From the sequence record PZ154895.1: 64,000 bases of DNA; one strand, written 5' to 3'. Made by a program: the position numbers and the translations under genes. Within the stretch, counting starts at the first letter, position 1. Each line of letters begins with the position of its first letter. The DNA is from a phage. Below the pieces are notes generated by a model. The model did not search any database, had not been told where the DNA came from, and saw only the letters and a list, made by a program, of their open reading frames with translations. Positions 45,545-60,394 of the stretch are shown in pieces.

Positions 45545-46168
45545 ATGAAAAAATATATAACTTATTTAACAATATATAGTGGAGATAAACTTCCTCCTTT
45601 TTATATTGGATCTACATCTTTAGACAGGCATTTAGCCGGATATCATGGATCAGTTTTATCTAAAAAGTATAAGAAAATTTATAATGAAGAACTTTCAAAT
45701 AACCCACATTTATTTGATTCATGCATTTTAGATGAATTTGATACACGCGAAGAAGCTATTAAATGCGAGCTATATTATCAACGTTTGCATGATGCGGTTA
45801 AAAATCCATTATTCTTTAATATGTCATATGCTGCTCCAAAAGGTTCATTTGGAAGAGATATTAAAGGACAAAATCATCCATTATATGGTTCTCATAATTG
45901 TAAAGGAAACATACATTCACATGACCCATTAACAGGAAAATCTGCCTTTTTACCGTATATTCCAGAAGGTTATGTAAAAGGAAGGTCAAATAAATTTAAA
46001 GCTTCATCACATAATAAAGGTAAAAAATGGTATAATAACGGAGTTAAGCAAATGTTATGTCATGAACCTCCTGGTCCTGAATGGACAAAAGGAAAAATTA
46101 AAGAACTAGTTTCAAAAGCAGCTAAATTAGGATGGAAAAGACACCATGAAAATACTAAACTTGGGTGA
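45545..46168 (+). CDS. GIY-YIG family homing endonuclease-like protein (seg-like)
   Basis: 207 aa; N-terminal ITYLTIYS...FYIGSTS; inserted between a-gt and gene 47. Confidence 0.65.
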   Translation: MKKYITYLTIYSGDKLPPFYIGSTSLDRHLAGYHGSVLSKKYKKIYNEELSNNPHLFDSCILDEFDTREEAIKCELYYQRLHDAVKNPLFFNMSYAAPKGSFGRDIKGQNHPLYGSHNCKGNIHSHDPLTGKSAFLPYIPEGYVKGRSNKFKASSHNKGKKWYNNGVKQMLCHEPPGPEWTKGKIKELVSKAAKLGWKRHHENTKLG

Positions 46169-47612: not shown

Positions 47613-49297
47613 AGAATTTTAAACTAAACCGAGTTAGGTATCAAAATATAATGTCAGTAGGTGGAAATCCTATTGACATTCAACTAGATAAGGTTCAAAA
47701 AACTCTTATTACTGGGCGAAATGGTGGTGGTAAGTCTACTATGTTAGAAGCCATCACATTTGGGCTTTTTGGCAAGCCATTTCGTGATGTAAAGAAAGGT
47801 CAATTAATAAACAGCACAAATAAGAAAGAACTTTTAGTTGAACTGTGGATGGAATATGATGAGAAAAAGTACTATATCAAAAGAGGACAAAAACCAAACG
47901 TTTTCGAAATCACCGTTAACGGTACACGTCTTAATGAATCTGCCAGCAGTAAAGATTTCCAAGCAGAATTTGAACAGCTTATCGGAATGTCATATGCCAG
48001 TTTCAAGCAGATTGTTGTCCTTGGTACAGCAGGGTATACCCCTTTCATGGGTTTGTCGACCCCTGCGCGAAGAAAGCTTGTGGAAGACCTGCTCGAGGTA
48101 GGAACATTAGCTGAAATGGATAAGCTTAATAAAGCACTAATACGTGAATTAAATTCACAAAACCAAGTGCTTGATGTTAAAAAAGATAGTATTATCCAAC
48201 AAATTAAAATATATAATGATAACGTTGAACGCCAGAAAAAATTAACTGGTGATAACCTTACTCGTCTGCAGAACATGTATGATGATTTGGCAAAAGAAGC
48301 TAGAACGTTAAAATCGGAAATAGAAGAAGCTAATGAAAGATTAGTTAATATTGTTTTGGATGAAGACCCGACTGATGCATTTAATAAAATCGGTCAAGAA
48401 GCATTTTTAATTAAATCAAAAATTGACTCGTATAATAAAGTCATTAATATGTATCACGAAGGTGGATTATGTCCAACCTGTTTGTCACAATTAAGTTCCG
48501 GTGATAAAGTTGTTTCTAAAATTAAAGATAAAGTTTCTGAATGCACGCATTCATTTGAACAGCTTTCAACACATCGTGATAATTTAAAAGTTCTTGTTGA
48601 TGAATACCGAGATAATATTAAAACCCAGCAGACGTTGGCAAATGATATTCGCAATAAAAAGCAATCCTTAATCACGACGGTAGATAAAGCTAAAAAAGTT
48701 AAAGCGGCTATAGAAAAAGCATCATCTGAGTTTATTGACCATGCTGATGAAATAGCACTGCTTCAAGAAGAACTTGATAAAATTGTTAAGACAAAAACTA
48801 ATTTAGTAATGGAAAAATACCACAGAGGAATTTTGACTGATATGCTCAAAGATTCTGGTATTAAAGGTGCTATTATTAAAAAGTACATTCCATTATTTAA
48901 TAAGCAGATTAACCATTATCTTAAAATAATGGAAGCGGATTATGTGTTTACATTAGATGAAGAATTTAATGAAACAATTAAATCCCGTGGTCGTGAAGAT
49001 TTTAGTTATGCTTCATTTAGTCAAGGTGAAAAAGCACGAATTGATATTGCTCTTTTATTTACTTGGCGTGATATTGCTGAAAAAGTTTCAGGTGTTAAAA
49101 TAAGCTGTTTATTTCTTGATGAAGTATATGACGGTGCATTTGATGCTGAAGGTATTAAAAATGTAGCTAAAATTTTAGATGGTTTGAAGGATACCAACTT
49201 CTTCATAATTTCGCATAAAGACCATGACCCACAAGAATATGGTCAGCATATTCAGATGGAAAAAGTTGGTAGATTTAGTTTAGCTAAGATTAGCTAG
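47609..49297 (+). CDS. 46: recombination endonuclease subunit gp46 (Rad50-like)
   Basis: 562 aa; Walker A GRNGGGKST; central coiled coil with CPTC zinc hook; signature SQGEKARI; Walker B FLDE. Confidence 0.92.
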   Translation: MKNFKLNRVRYQNIMSVGGNPIDIQLDKVQKTLITGRNGGGKSTMLEAITFGLFGKPFRDVKKGQLINSTNKKELLVELWMEYDEKKYYIKRGQKPNVFEITVNGTRLNESASSKDFQAEFEQLIGMSYASFKQIVVLGTAGYTPFMGLSTPARRKLVEDLLEVGTLAEMDKLNKALIRELNSQNQVLDVKKDSIIQQIKIYNDNVERQKKLTGDNLTRLQNMYDDLAKEARTLKSEIEEANERLVNIVLDEDPTDAFNKIGQEAFLIKSKIDSYNKVINMYHEGGLCPTCLSQLSSGDKVVSKIKDKVSECTHSFEQLSTHRDNLKVLVDEYRDNIKTQQTLANDIRNKKQSLITTVDKAKKVKAAIEKASSEFIDHADEIALLQEELDKIVKTKTNLVMEKYHRGILTDMLKDSGIKGAIIKKYIPLFNKQINHYLKIMEADYVFTLDEEFNETIKSRGREDFSYASFSQGEKARIDIALLFTWRDIAEKVSGVKISCLFLDEVYDGAFDAEGIKNVAKILDGLKDTNFFIISHKDHDPQEYGQHIQMEKVGRFSLAKIS

Positions 49298-50006
49298 GTT
49301 TATATTTACAGTTATCATTATGCCATCTTGATAAATTTCCGAAAGTGGTAACTTTACCACAATGGACGCAAGTACCAGTCTTTTCAGTTTTCTTGCGTCC
49401 ATTTGGATTTTTCTTGCAGAAATTTCTATGCGCTGCGATAACGCATTTCTTGCCTATCATTCCACAGAATTCGCAGGATGTTTCTTCAAGAACGATTGCT
49501 TTAAGCCCGTTTGAGATATTATTTCTGTGTTCTTTAGACATTGGTGGTCTAACTTTAGGATTAGGGTGATTTGGACAGTTATCAAAATGCCAACGATTCA
49601 TATTCCCGCTTAATCCAGACTTACCGCAATGAGGACAAGTTAGTCTTGCTTTATTAGCTACTGCATCAGACATTTTCTTTCGTGTCTCCTGGGAGAATTC
49701 TTTGTTCTTTTCTATTTCCCAGAGTTTACGACGAATCCAACCGAAAGTTTTATTGTTGCGTTTAGCGTATTTCGTGGAAACTGTCATCATGTTAGCAGCA
49801 TAGACTAATTTTGGTTCAGAAGGATAAATTTTTACTAAAAGTTGATGAGCTACATAGTGCTCTTCTGGCGTTAAATCTACTAAGTTTGAAGCATCATCAC
49901 TACCGTTTAAACAGCGTGGTATAATGTGATGAGATTCAGTATAGCAATCAAGTTTTCGAGATTTAGCATTAGAGATTAACTTTTCATAAATTAGTTTATA
50001 ATTCAT
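49290..50006 (-). CDS. HNH homing endonuclease
   Basis: 238 aa on opposite strand; HNH motif ESHHIIPRCLNGSDDASNLVDLTPEEHYVAH; Cys-rich C-terminal repeats. Confidence 0.85.
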   Translation of the reverse strand: MNYKLIYEKLISNAKSRKLDCYTESHHIIPRCLNGSDDASNLVDLTPEEHYVAHQLLVKIYPSEPKLVYAANMMTVSTKYAKRNNKTFGWIRRKLWEIEKNKEFSQETRKKMSDAVANKARLTCPHCGKSGLSGNMNRWHFDNCPNHPNPKVRPPMSKEHRNNISNGLKAIVLEETSCEFCGMIGKKCVIAAHRNFCKKNPNGRKKTEKTGTCVHCGKVTTFGNLSRWHNDNCKYKPS

Positions 50007-53637: not shown

Positions 53638-56334
53638 ATGAAAGAATTTTATATCTCTATCGAAACAGTCGGAAATAATATTGTTGAGCGTTATATTGAT
53701 GAAAACGGAAAGGAACGTACTCGTGAAGTAGAATATCTTCCGACTATGTTTAGGCATTGTAAGGAAGAGTCAAAGTACAAAGACATTTACGGTAAAAATT
53801 GCGCTCCTCAAAAATTTCCATCAATGAAAGATGCACGAGACTGGATGAAGCGAATGGAAGACATCGGTCTCGAAGCTCTTGGTATGAACGATTTTAAACT
53901 CGCTTATATCAGTGATACATATGGTTCAGAAATTGTTTATGACCGAAAATTTGTTCGTGTAGCTAACTGTGACATTGAGGTTACTGGCGATAAATTTCCT
54001 GACCCAATGAAAGCAGAATATGAAATTGATGCTATCACTCATTATGATTCAATTGACGACCGTTTTTACGTCTTTGATTTGTTGAATTCAATGTACGGTT
54101 CAGTATCAAAATGGGATGCAAAGTTAGCTGCTAAACTTGACTGTGAAGGTGGTGATGAAGTTCCTCAAGAAATTCTTGACCGAGTAATTTATATGCCATT
54201 TGATAATGAGCGTGATATGCTCATGGAATATATTAATCTCTGGGAACAGAAACGACCTGCTATTTTTACTGGTTGGAATATTGAGGGATTTGACGTTCCG
54301 TATATCATGAATCGCGTTAAAATGGTTCTTGGTGAACGTAGTATGAAACGCTTCTCTCCAATCGGTCGAGTAAAATCTAAACTAATTCAAAATATGTACG
54401 GTAGCAAAGAAATTTATTCTATTGATGGCGTATCTATTCTTGATTATTTAGATTTGTACAAGAAATTCGCATTTACTAATTTGCCATCATTCTCTTTGGA
54501 ATCAGTTGCTCAACATGAAACCAAAAAAGGTAAATTGCCGTACGATGGTCCTATTAATAAACTTCGTGAGACTAATCATCAACGATACATTAGTTATAAC
54601 ATTATTGACGTAGAATCAGTTCAAGCAATTGATAAAATTCGTGGGTTTATCGATCTAGTTTTAAGTATGTCTTATTATGCTAAAATGCCTTTTTCTGGTG
54701 TAATGAGTCCTATTAAAACTTGGGATGCTATTATTTTTAACTCACTGAAAAGTGAACATAAGGTTATTCCTCAACAAGGTTCGCACGTTAAGCAGAGTTT
54801 TCCAGGCGCATTTGTGTTTGAACCTAAACCGATTGCCCGTCGATACATTATGAGTTTTGACTTGACATCTCTGTATCCTAGCATTATTCGTCAGGTTAAC
54901 ATTAGTCCTGAGACTATTCGTGGACAGTTTAAAGTTCATCCAATTCATGAATATATCGCAGGAACAGCTCCTAAGCCAAGTGATGAATATTCTTGTTCTC
55001 CGAATGGATGGATGTATGATAAGCACCAAGAAGGTATCATTCCAAAGGAAATCGCTAAAGTATTTTTCCAGCGTAAAGATTGGAAAAAGAAAATGTTCGC
55101 CGAAGAAATGAATGCCGAAGCTATTAAAAAGATTATTATGAAAGGTGCAGGGTCTTGCTCAACTAAGCCAGAAGTTGAACGATATGTTAAGTTCAGTGAT
55201 GATTTCTTAAATGAATTATCGAATTACACCGAATCTGTTCTTAATAGTCTGATCGAAGAATGTGAAAAAGCAGCTACACTTGCTAACACAAATCAGCTGA
55301 ACCGTAAAATTCTTATCAACAGTCTTTATGGTGCTCTTGGTAATATTCATTTCCGTTACTATGATTTGCGAAATGCTACTGCTATCACAATTTTTGGTCA
55401 AGTTGGTATTCAGTGGATTGCTCGTAAAATTAATGAATATCTGAATAAAGTGTGTGGAACTGATGGTGAAGATTTCATCGCAGCAGGTGATACTGATTCG
55501 GTATATGTTTGTGTAGATAAAGTAATTGAAAAAGTAGGTCTTGACCGCTTTAAAGAACAAAATGATTTAGTTGAATTCATGAATCAGTTTGGTAAGAAAA
55601 AGATGGAACCTATGATTGATGTTGCATATCGTGAGTTATGTGATTATATGAATAACCGCGAGCATCTGATGCATATGGACCGTGAAGCTATTTCTTGCCC
55701 TCCACTCGGTTCAAAGGGTGTTGGTGGATTTTGGAAAGCGAAAAAACGTTATGCTCTGAACGTTTATGATATGGAAGATAAGCGATTTGCTGAACCACAT
55801 CTAAAAATCATGGGTATGGAAACTCAACAGAGTTCAACACCAAAAGCAGTGCAAGAAGCTCTCGAAGAAAGTATTCGTCGTATTCTTCAGGAAGGTGAAG
55901 AGTCTGTCCAAGAATACTATAAGAACTTTGAGAAAGAATACCGTCAACTTGACTATAAAGTTATTGCTGAAGTAAAAACCGCGAACGATATAGCAAAATA
56001 TGACGATAAGGGTTGGCCAGGATTTAAATGTCCGTTCCATATTCGTGGTGTGCTAACTTATCGTCGAGCTGTTAGCGGTTTAGGTGTAGCTCCAATTTTG
56101 GATGGAAATAAGGTAATGGTTCTTCCGTTACGTGAGGGAAATCCATTTGGTGACAAGTGTATTGCTTGGCCGTCGGGCACAGAACTTCCAAAAGAAATTC
56201 GTTCTGATGTACTGTCTTGGATTGACTACTCAACTTTGTTCCAAAAATCGTTTGTTAAACCGCTTGCGGGCATGTGTGAATCGGCAGGTATGGACTATGA
56301 GGAAAAAGCTTCGTTAGACTTCCTGTTTGGCTGA
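53638..56334 (+). CDS. 43: DNA polymerase gp43 (family B)
   Basis: 898 aa; exonuclease and polymerase motifs (YGDTDS-like AAGDTDSVY). Confidence 0.96.
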   Translation: MKEFYISIETVGNNIVERYIDENGKERTREVEYLPTMFRHCKEESKYKDIYGKNCAPQKFPSMKDARDWMKRMEDIGLEALGMNDFKLAYISDTYGSEIVYDRKFVRVANCDIEVTGDKFPDPMKAEYEIDAITHYDSIDDRFYVFDLLNSMYGSVSKWDAKLAAKLDCEGGDEVPQEILDRVIYMPFDNERDMLMEYINLWEQKRPAIFTGWNIEGFDVPYIMNRVKMVLGERSMKRFSPIGRVKSKLIQNMYGSKEIYSIDGVSILDYLDLYKKFAFTNLPSFSLESVAQHETKKGKLPYDGPINKLRETNHQRYISYNIIDVESVQAIDKIRGFIDLVLSMSYYAKMPFSGVMSPIKTWDAIIFNSLKSEHKVIPQQGSHVKQSFPGAFVFEPKPIARRYIMSFDLTSLYPSIIRQVNISPETIRGQFKVHPIHEYIAGTAPKPSDEYSCSPNGWMYDKHQEGIIPKEIAKVFFQRKDWKKKMFAEEMNAEAIKKIIMKGAGSCSTKPEVERYVKFSDDFLNELSNYTESVLNSLIEECEKAATLANTNQLNRKILINSLYGALGNIHFRYYDLRNATAITIFGQVGIQWIARKINEYLNKVCGTDGEDFIAAGDTDSVYVCVDKVIEKVGLDRFKEQNDLVEFMNQFGKKKMEPMIDVAYRELCDYMNNREHLMHMDREAISCPPLGSKGVGGFWKAKKRYALNVYDMEDKRFAEPHLKIMGMETQQSSTPKAVQEALEESIRRILQEGEESVQEYYKNFEKEYRQLDYKVIAEVKTANDIAKYDDKGWPGFKCPFHIRGVLTYRRAVSGLGVAPILDGNKVMVLPLREGNPFGDKCIAWPSGTELPKEIRSDVLSWIDYSTLFQKSFVKPLAGMCESAGMDYEEKASLDFLFG

Positions 56335-57150: not shown

Positions 57151-57402
57151 ATGGAAACTTTAGTAGCAGGTTCAATTTTTATGGTTTTAGTTTCAGGCGT
57201 GTTGGCTATTATTATATACATGCTTCCATGGTTCATCGCCTTGATGCGTGGGTCAAAATCGACAGTAGGAATCTTTTTCACATCTTTACTGTTTAACTGG
57301 TCAATCATTGGTTGGTTTATTACATTTATTTGGTCAATTGCAGGTGAAACTAAAAAATCTGTACAGCAAAATCAAGTAATTATCATCAGAGAGAAGGAAT
57401 GA
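57151..57402 (+). CDS. imm: superinfection immunity membrane protein Imm
   Basis: 83 aa, two TM helices, position between 43 and 42. Confidence 0.75.
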   Translation: METLVAGSIFMVLVSGVLAIIIYMLPWFIALMRGSKSTVGIFFTSLLFNWSIIGWFITFIWSIAGETKKSVQQNQVIIIREKE

Positions 57403-57548
57403 AAAGCAAAATTTTAGCAGTATTGCTTTTAATCTTGATGATTATAATAAGTATATACTATAGCGTAACAGTTCCTTGTATGATTCCAACGCTTATTATA
57501 GGGTGGAGTTTATTACTGTTACAAGTTAAATATGAATGCATCAATTGA
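57399..57548 (+). CDS. small hydrophobic peptide
   Basis: 49 aa two-helix membrane peptide, ATGA-coupled to imm; not in ORF track. Confidence 0.35.
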   Translation: MKSKILAVLLLILMIIISIYYSVTVPCMIPTLIIGWSLLLLQVKYECIN

Positions 57549-57555
57549 GGTTTAA

Positions 57556-58296
57556 ATGATTAACGATTATATGACAGTTGAAGAAATCCGTCTTGATTTG
57601 GGTCTTGCATTAAAGGAAAAAGATTTCGTAATTGATAAAACCGGTGTTAAAACTATTGAAATTATTGGTGCATCATTTGTAGCAGATGAACCTTTTATTT
57701 TTGGCGCTCTTAATGATGAATACATTCAACGTGAACTTGAATGGTATAAGTCTCAAAGTCTGTTTGTTAAAGATATTCCAGGTGAAACGCCGAAGATTTG
57801 GCAGCAGGTAGCATCTTCTAAAGGCGAAATTAACTCGAATTATGGTTGGGCCATCTGGTCAGAAGATAACTATGCCCAGTATGATATGTGTTTAGCTGAA
57901 CTTGGTCAAAATCCTGATTCTCGACGCGGTATCATGATTTATACTCGTCCATCCATGCAGTTTGACTACAATAAAGATGGTATGTCAGATTTCATGTGTA
58001 CGAATACAGTACAGTACCTGATTCGTGATAAGAAAGTCAATGCAGTAGTAAGCATGCGTTCAAATGACGTAGTCTTCGGATTCCGTAATGATTATGCGTG
58101 GCAAAAATACGTACTAGATAAATTAGTATCTGATTTGAATGCAGGTGATTCAACTCGTCAGTATAAAGCAGGTTCCATTATATGGAATGTCGGGAGCCTT
58201 CATGTGTATTCCCGTCATTTTTATTTGGTTGACCATTGGTGGAAAACTGGCGAAACTCATATTGCGAAAAAAGATTATAACGGTGAGTGGAAATGA
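57556..58296 (+). CDS. 42: dCMP hydroxymethylase gp42
   Basis: 246 aa thymidylate-synthase-like fold signature, synteny. Confidence 0.9.
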   Translation: MINDYMTVEEIRLDLGLALKEKDFVIDKTGVKTIEIIGASFVADEPFIFGALNDEYIQRELEWYKSQSLFVKDIPGETPKIWQQVASSKGEINSNYGWAIWSEDNYAQYDMCLAELGQNPDSRRGIMIYTRPSMQFDYNKDGMSDFMCTNTVQYLIRDKKVNAVVSMRSNDVVFGFRNDYAWQKYVLDKLVSDLNAGDSTRQYKAGSIIWNVGSLHVYSRHFYLVDHWWKTGETHIAKKDYNGEWK

Positions 58297-59135
58297 TTCA
58301 ATTCGTAATTCCAAGCTATCAACGCGGAGGGGCAGTTTCTGCCCTTGATATGTTTCCGACTGATTATGAACCTCATATTGTAGTACGTGAACACGAAGAA
58401 AAAGCTTATTATGACGCTTACGGGTCTAGAGCTAAAATTATAACTATTCCTGATGATGTTAATGGAATTGCTGGTACTCGTAAAGCAATTACTGATATGT
58501 ATGCAGGTCAACGAATCTGGATGATTGATGATGATACTACTATTCGTATGAGTTCAATGCGAAAGAAAGATGATCGTCGCTGTGTAGATAAAATTAATCA
58601 ATTAACTCGTGAACAGTTCTATGAATTGATTCAATACGTGGAAGATGCCATGGATTGCGGGTATTATCACGGCCATGCTCGTCTACCTATTTTTAAAATT
58701 ACTTCATCTTGGGGTAATTATCGTGAAAATTCATACGGATTCACGAATACCTGGTATGATTTAGGAAAACTTACAACAGAACAAATTGGGTATGGAAAAA
58801 TTGATTTATGCGAAGATATGTATGCATTTCTCAATTTAATTAATCAAGGTTATCCGCATTTGGCCTTGTTCAAATATCTAGTTGTATCTGGAAAAGCGCA
58901 AGCTCCTGGCGGATGTAGTTCAATTCGTAGTAATTCAAAACATAATAGAGCTCTTGAGCAAATCAATAGAGAGTTTCCAGAGCAAGCTCGTTGGAAAACT
59001 TCTAATATTGAAAAACGAAAATCGTTGGGTGAAGAAGACGAGCCATTAAAGGTTCTTCGCATGTGTGTTTCGCGCAAAGAAAAGTCAGAAGCATTTCATA
59101 AGTTTAATGCTATTCATCCAATAGCAGTTGATTAA
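58287..59135 (+). CDS. DxD glycosyltransferase at the position of T4 beta-gt (possibly beta-alpha-glucosyltransferase of T2/T6 type)
   Basis: 282 aa; DxD motif WMIDDDTT; shorter than T4 beta-gt (351 aa). Confidence 0.55.
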   Translation: MEMIQFVIPSYQRGGAVSALDMFPTDYEPHIVVREHEEKAYYDAYGSRAKIITIPDDVNGIAGTRKAITDMYAGQRIWMIDDDTTIRMSSMRKKDDRRCVDKINQLTREQFYELIQYVEDAMDCGYYHGHARLPIFKITSSWGNYRENSYGFTNTWYDLGKLTTEQIGYGKIDLCEDMYAFLNLINQGYPHLALFKYLVVSGKAQAPGGCSSIRSNSKHNRALEQINREFPEQARWKTSNIEKRKSLGEEDEPLKVLRMCVSRKEKSEAFHKFNAIHPIAVD

Positions 59136-59212
59136 TGCCTAAATTTATTGTGTTATAATTACCCTATCTTTAACCAGTGAGGAAAATATAATGATGCCTA
59201 TGGAAAAAATGA

Positions 59213-60394
59213 ATGTCTATTGCAGATTTAAAATCCCGTTTGATTAAAGCTTCCACTTCTAAAATGACTGCTGAACTGACTACATCTAAATTCTTTAATG
59301 AAAAGGATGTAATCCGTACAAAAATCCCAATGCTTAATATCGCTATTTCCGGTGCGATTGATGGTGGAATGCAGTCTGGTTTAACCATTTTTGCAGGTCC
59401 TTCTAAACACTTTAAATCAAATATGTCTTTGACTATGGTTGCGGCGTATTTGAACAAATATCCTGATGCGGTTTGTTTATTCTATGATAGCGAATTTGGT
59501 ATTACTCCAGCTTATTTGCGATCCATGGGAGTTGACCCGGAACGAGTAATTCATACACCAATTCAGTCAGTTGAACAGCTGAAAATTGATATGGTGAATC
59601 AGCTTGAAGCTATTGAGCGCGGTGAAAAGGTTATTGTATTCATCGACTCAATCGGTAATATGGCTTCTAAGAAAGAAACGGAAGATGCCTTGAATGAAAA
59701 ATCTGTGGCAGATATGACTCGTGCTAAATCACTGAAGTCATTATTCCGTATTGTTACTCCTTATTTTAGTATCAAAAACATTCCATGTGTTGCGGTTAAC
59801 CATACAATTGAAACAATTGAAATGTTTAGTAAAACCGTGATGACAGGTGGTACAGGCGTAATGTATTCGGCTGATACTGTATTCATTATCGGTAAGCGTC
59901 AGATTAAAGATGGTTCTGATCTTCAGGGGTATCAATTTGTTCTAAATGTAGAAAAATCTCGTACCGTCAAAGAAAAAAGTAAATTCTTTATTGATGTTAA
60001 ATTTGACGGTGGTATCGATCCTTATTCTGGATTGTTAGATATGGCTCTTGAATTAGGATTTGTAGTAAAACCTAAAAATGGCTGGTATGCTCGTGAATTT
60101 CTTGATGAAGAAACCGGCGAGATGATTCGCGAAGAAAAATCTTGGCGCGCAAAAGATACCAACTGTACTACATTCTGGGGTCCTTTATTTAAGCATCAAC
60201 CATTCCGAGATGCTATTAAACGCGCTTATCAGTTGGGTGCTATTGATAGTAATGAAATTGTTGAAGCTGAAGTTGATGAATTAATTAACTCAAAGGTTGA
60301 AAAATTTAAATCTCCAGAAAGTAAAAGTAAATCAGCAGCTGATTTAGAAACTGACCTAGATCAGTTAAGTGATATGGAAGAATTTAATGAATAA
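59213..60394 (+). CDS. uvsX: recombinase UvsX (RecA-like)
   Basis: 393 aa beginning MSIADLKSRLIKASTSK; Walker A GPSKHFKS; near-identical to T4 UvsX as recalled. Confidence 0.95.
   Translation: MSIADLKSRLIKASTSKMTAELTTSKFFNEKDVIRTKIPMLNIAISGAIDGGMQSGLTIFAGPSKHFKSNMSLTMVAAYLNKYPDAVCLFYDSEFGITPAYLRSMGVDPERVIHTPIQSVEQLKIDMVNQLEAIERGEKVIVFIDSIGNMASKKETEDALNEKSVADMTRAKSLKSLFRIVTPYFSIKNIPCVAVNHTIETIEMFSKTVMTGGTGVMYSADTVFIIGKRQIKDGSDLQGYQFVLNVEKSRTVKEKSKFFIDVKFDGGIDPYSGLLDMALELGFVVKPKNGWYAREFLDEETGEMIREEKSWRAKDTNCTTFWGPLFKHQPFRDAIKRAYQLGAIDSNEIVEAEVDELINSKVEKFKSPESKSKSAADLETDLDQLSDMEEFNE

Follow-up and report, generated by a model that had tools for sequence, protein, structure and literature searches.

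The beta-glucosyl-HMC-alpha-glucosyltransferase genes of phages T2 and T6 (ba-gt, also called g-gt or ggt, with TAGT as a further name) were cloned and sequenced in 1993 by Winkler and Ruger, as cited in PMC11946311. The two phages differ in the composition of their DNA: about 70% of hmC is alpha-glucosylated, 5% gentiobiosylated and about 25% bare in T2, while the corresponding values for T6 are about 3%, 72% and about 25% (PMC11078745; bioRxiv 10.64898/2026.02.25.707755). In T6 deprived of ba-gt, alpha-glucosyl-hmC alone remains and sensitivity to Brig1 is increased (PMC11078745); DNA of this deletion phage is cleaved by Brig1 and is also a substrate for BapA (PMC11078745; bioRxiv 10.64898/2026.02.25.707755). 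Tequatrovirus isolates have been described as well which, like T6, carry an alpha-GT and have a TAGT where, by synteny, T4 has its beta-GT, and gentiobiosyl-mdC (gentiobiosyl-hmC) was measured in them by HPLC/MS (PMC13390438). An AF3 model of T6 TAGT was assigned to the GT-A type, as a sister to GT2, and the usual combination was reported to be either an alpha-GT or a beta-GT together with TAGT (PMC13216743). The gene, its locus, the fold and the T6 deletion phenotype had therefore all been published, between 1993 and 2026, and the analysis described here adds no new biology to them.

We analysed a stretch of phage DNA of 64,000 nucleotides (hereafter the window), which bears a gene of this kind between gene 42 and uvsX (Table 1). 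Gene order in this part of the window is 43, imm.1, imm, 42, ba-gt, uvsX, 40, 41, and it is identical in PP01, T2 and T6. Two small membrane-protein genes lie on the same strand between the DNA polymerase gene and gene 42, and uvsX is followed by gene 40 and then by gene 41, encoding the helicase. The dCMP hydroxymethylase assignment of gp42 is also the annotation found in the syntenic regions of PP01, T6 and T4. In T4, the same slot after gene 42 is occupied by b-gt, followed by segA; thus, Pfam matches of the neighbours and the T4 record together bear out the position proposed in an earlier note on this DNA, namely that the gene sits between 42 and uvsX where T4 has b-gt.

Table 1. Coordinates of ba-gt, its motifs, its neighbours and its predicted pathway partner in the window
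Feature	Position	Strand	Evidence or remark
a-gt, DNA alpha-glucosyltransferase, 400 aa	44166..45368	+	PDB 1xv5/1y6f, E 5e-257, full length; Pfam AGT PF11440, E 2.4e-236
DNA polymerase (gene 43)	53638-56334	+	upstream of ba-gt
Gene 42, dCMP hydroxymethylase, 246 aa	57556..58296	+	Pfam Thymidylat_synt PF00303, E 1.1e-15; stop overlaps ba-gt start
GTG GAA, the two additional codons of the listed ORF	58287..58292	+	probably outside the translated ba-gt product
ba-gt / g-gt / TAGT (predicted beta-glucosyl-HMC-alpha-glucosyltransferase)	58293..59135	+	280 aa + stop; ORF, overlap with gene 42 stop, homology, PHROG 842, PF20691, GT-A model
DxD motif D79-D80-D81 (GAT GAT GAT)	58527..58535	+	invariant in 45/45 homologues; putative metal/UDP-sugar site
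E174-D175 'ED' motif	58812..58817	+	start of helix 174-184 (model); D175 in 39/45 homologues
uvsX, 393 aa	59213-60394		Pfam T4_UVSX_C, E 4.7e-39; RecA

The mechanically listed ORF (58287..59135, plus strand) has a GTG start and a length of 282 aa, and it includes RIWMIDDDTTIRM. However, an ATG at 58293 overlaps the stop codon of gene 42 as ATGA (the sequence reads GGT GAG TGG AAATGA), the annotated orthologues of PP01 and T2 begin at the corresponding ATG, are 843 bp long and have 4 nt in common with gene 42, and all full-length homologues have an N-terminus of the form M-IQFVIPSY or MxxIQFVIPSY. For these reasons we placed the gene as in Table 1, and its start is almost certainly the ATG, giving a product of 280 aa, as judged from the sequence. 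Residue 3 of the listed ORF is also where several tblastn alignments begin. The GTG was dropped as a start, since neither the annotation of orthologues nor the N-termini of homologues supports the two residues that it would add. The WMIDDDTT motif attributed in the earlier note to a protein of 282 aa is thus present, but in a protein two residues shorter. A scan of 57300-59400 for promoters and terminators gave counts not above those of shuffled sequence; its single terminator-like hairpin (58328-58346) falls within the ba-gt coding sequence, and we thus draw no conclusion from it. Self-tblastn of the 64-kb window matched ba-gt alone, with no paralogue.

That this reading frame is a real gene follows from its distribution. 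When 50,697 phage records were searched by tblastn, the ba-gt protein was found in 690 of them, with a coverage of at least 80% in 686, which is well beyond chance. Identity is at least 95% in 472 of the matching records, which come from Tequatrovirus phages of Escherichia, Shigella, Yersinia and Salmonella, and it is 60-80% in about 200 others, from T4-like phages of Klebsiella, Enterobacter and Citrobacter. A scan of IMG/VR yielded five loci, all nearly identical and therefore of little use for counting variants.

The comparison with the T2 and T6 enzymes, suggested in the earlier note together with the idea that the protein is of their type rather than a b-gt, speaks clearly in favour of that idea. 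The window protein is identical to the T2 enzyme at 275 of 280 positions and to the annotated T6 protein at 256 of 261, i.e. about 98% in both cases. Its only match in PHROGs is phrog_842, 'beta-glucosyl-HMC-alpha-glucosyltransferase' (E 2.5e-88, residues 2-277), and in Pfam it matches PF20691 (TAGT) with 37.0 bits against a gathering cut-off of 27.5, residues 7-209 aligning to positions 4-205 of the 205-position profile. On the basis of sequence and model we are therefore highly confident that the T2/T6 beta-glucosyl-HMC-alpha-glucosyltransferase has its Tequatrovirus orthologue in the window gene, which encodes a small DxD enzyme of the GT-A type.

The structure model of the window protein is a GT-A fold with a single Rossmann-like alpha/beta/alpha domain, like that of solved GT-A enzymes. 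D79-D80-D81 directly follows strand E74-78 of this model, and a DxD motif right after a core beta-strand is in the canonical GT-A position. The model and the invariance of the DDD triplet agree with the previous description of the protein as GT-A-like with a DxD motif, and D79-x-D81 is the putative site for the metal and the UDP-sugar. GT2 enzymes have a (T)ED motif, to which the E174-D175 pair may be likened; by this analogy, D175 is a candidate for the catalytic base, as expected for a GT2-like enzyme of the inverting kind. The ORF is intact and keeps the invariant or near-invariant residues I6, P7, Y9, R11, R32, Y39, T62, R63, D79-81 and R212. The only private residue of the window protein among 11 close sequences compared is G12 (58326-58328), the other ten having Val; this position adjoins the invariant R11 and varies in the wider family (V/A/P/G).

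As gene 42, alpha-gt and ba-gt are all present, the window encodes a hydroxymethylase, a maker of alpha-glucosyl-hmC and its extender. Gene 42 together with the replication machinery would bring hmC into phage DNA, and alpha-gt would add to it an alpha-linked glucose, thus producing the acceptor for ba-gt. The latter enzyme would hold UDP-glucose by means of D79-x-D81 and a divalent metal and, in an inverting reaction on duplex DNA, attach another glucose at the 6-OH of the one already present, the expected product being beta-1,6-glucosyl-alpha-glucosyl-hmC (gentiobiosyl-hmC). Because the route would lead through alpha-gt and then ba-gt, hmC in phage DNA should be alpha-monoglucosylated or di-glucosylated, and beta-glucosyl-hmC should be absent. 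The bases established here are the orthology and locus of the gene, the fold and conserved motifs of its product, the presence of alpha-gt and the fact that no beta-gt of the T4 type was detectable in the window; the chemistry, and a role in evading defences such as Brig1 and BapA, are proposed by analogy with the published T2/T6 work.

The gene may thus serve as an indicator of the cytosine hypermodification to be expected (alpha-glucosyl- and gentiobiosyl-hmC), and this modification matters for how sensitive the phage is to Brig1, BapA, enzymes of the GmrSD/BrxU type and CRISPR effectors; knowing its identity is of use in annotation and in the choice of phages. A hypermodification pattern different from that of T4, as anticipated in the earlier note, holds at the level of the gene set, but the arrangement in the window is the common one in the genus and it is T4 that makes the exception (PMC13216743). 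In other words, alpha-gt together with TAGT is the common Tequatrovirus state, and T4 is the outlier. On the other hand, the fraction of di-glucosylated hmC is not predictable from sequence, since the T2 and T6 values differ as widely as quoted above while both enzymes are about 98% identical to that of the window; the uncertainty which remains is quantitative only.

Database records of the T2 and T6 genes deserve a separate comment. Both T2 records, AP018813 (L003:3283-4125 (-)) and LC348380 (L006:3295-4137 (-)), have His at residue 11. Arg11 is invariant in 45 of 45 family members (in the window, its codon is at 58323-58325), and it is also present in PP01, in both T6 records and in five IMG/VR contigs. 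In the T6 record MH550421 (L002:3138-3980 (-)), codon 10 is TAG and not CAA, and a 261-aa product is annotated from Met20; such a product would be devoid of the first beta-strand and of the invariant IPSYxR motif. In the other T6 record, AP018814 (L005:3135-3974 (-)), one GAT of (GAT)3 is missing, which results in WMIDDTT and a 279-aa product. With a TAG codon in one record and a lost GAT in the other, the two public T6 sequences differ in the lesion of the very gene that defines T6 DNA modification.

We put forward, as a hypothesis only and one that we regard as possible rather than probable, that the T2 R11H variant is hypomorphic, and that the phage of the window, like most R11 Tequatrovirus isolates, has heavily di-glucosylated, T6-like DNA. 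If this were true, R11H hypomorphy would account for the contrast in gentiobiosyl-hmC, now 60 years old, between T2 (about 5%) and T6 (about 72%). It is also conceivable that the window bears the right orthologue in the form of a weak or inactive allele, so that its DNA would be essentially alpha-monoglucosylated, as in T2 or even less modified. The lesions in the two sequenced T6 records (TAG at codon 10; one Asp of DDD lost), the R11H change of T2 at an invariant position and the private G12 of the window would all fit this possibility. Nevertheless, we consider it improbable, as the window ORF is intact, all invariant and near-invariant residues checked are kept and V, A, P or G may stand at position 12 in family members.

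Even less probable, to the point of being hardly plausible, is a TAGT-family enzyme that uses a donor or an acceptor other than those of T2 and T6, for example another sugar or bare hmC. The TAGT family is indeed diverse, its members being found with alpha-GT, with beta-GT or alone (PMC13216743), and specificities must therefore differ somewhere within it. Nonetheless, 98% identity to the T2/T6 enzymes, the same neighbours and the presence of alpha-gt make a changed specificity very unlikely in this particular case, and the window protein departs from its relatives at few positions, mostly by conservative changes. An active enzyme of the T2/T6 type, extending alpha-glucosyl-hmC, thus remains our preferred reading.

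The claim that the gene is not T4 beta-gt was assessed by the full-length alignment check and stands. BLASTP of the window protein against the 351-aa T4 b-gt gave chance matches only (all with E above 3, the best one being E 3.3 over 8 residues), and T4 b-gt used as a tblastn query against the whole 64-kb window gave no match at E up to 10. The PDB contains structures of both T4 BGT and T4 AGT. A PDB sequence search with the window protein (phmmer, E up to 10) returned four chance matches with no glucosyltransferase among them, and hence by this search the protein has no relative with a solved structure. A divergent or truncated T4-type beta-gt, putting beta-glucose directly on hmC, is suggested by position alone, i.e. 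the slot after gene 42, and we regard it as refuted by the lack of similarity to T4 b-gt in BLASTP, by a GT-A model as opposed to the GT-B fold of T4 b-gt (PMC13216743), and by 98% identity to the T2/T6 enzyme, whose deletion from T6 takes away the second glucose and not the first.

Compared with PP01, the window has two additional ORFs, both outside the ba-gt locus. An ORF of 207 aa (45545-46168, plus strand) separates a-gt from gene 47, whereas nothing but the small gene 47.1 is present there in PP01; its Pfam match to GIY-YIG is weak (19.9 bits, under the cut-off of 22.6), and the insertion of a homing endonuclease gene of the seg type is its probable origin. Another one, of 238 aa (49290-50006, minus strand), separates gene 46 from the 45.2/rpbA/45 block and is on the strand opposite to all its neighbours; this interval is longer in the window than in PP01, by about 0.7 kb. 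The match of the ORF to HNH is faint (16.9 bits, under the gathering cut-off), and it may represent an insertion of a mobile or homing endonuclease gene.

Among the known systems, T4 b-gt (351 aa, GT-B) shares with the window gene its genomic position after gene 42, and is unrelated to the window protein in both sequence and fold. T4 b-gt uses UDP-glucose as a donor and forms a beta linkage, as the window enzyme is predicted to do; however, the acceptor of T4 b-gt is bare hmC, whereas the window enzyme would extend alpha-glucosyl-hmC. GT2-like GT-A enzymes (AvpGT 9jma, TarS 5tze, TarP 6h1j and SpsA 1h7l) are only 7-15% identical to the window protein, and they act on lipid, teichoic acid or protein, while the acceptor of the window enzyme would be a sugar on duplex DNA. 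In the PF20691 family (TAGT, for TET-associated glycosyltransferase), the invariant IPSYxR, TR and DDD motifs are common to the window protein and 44 homologues. Still, the window protein has about 70 aa more at the C-terminus than the PF20691 domain, and hmC would enter its pathway as a nucleotide made by gene 42 and not through a TET/JBP dioxygenase. The closest likeness is that to ba-gt of T2 and T6, with the same length of 280 aa, 98% identity, the overlap with the gene 42 stop upstream of uvsX and the alpha-gt partner. The window differs from these enzymes by few substitutions (K92 and I101 being common to it and some relatives), it keeps the R11 that T2 has lost, and it is free of the amber codon and of the DDD deletion that mark the two T6 records.
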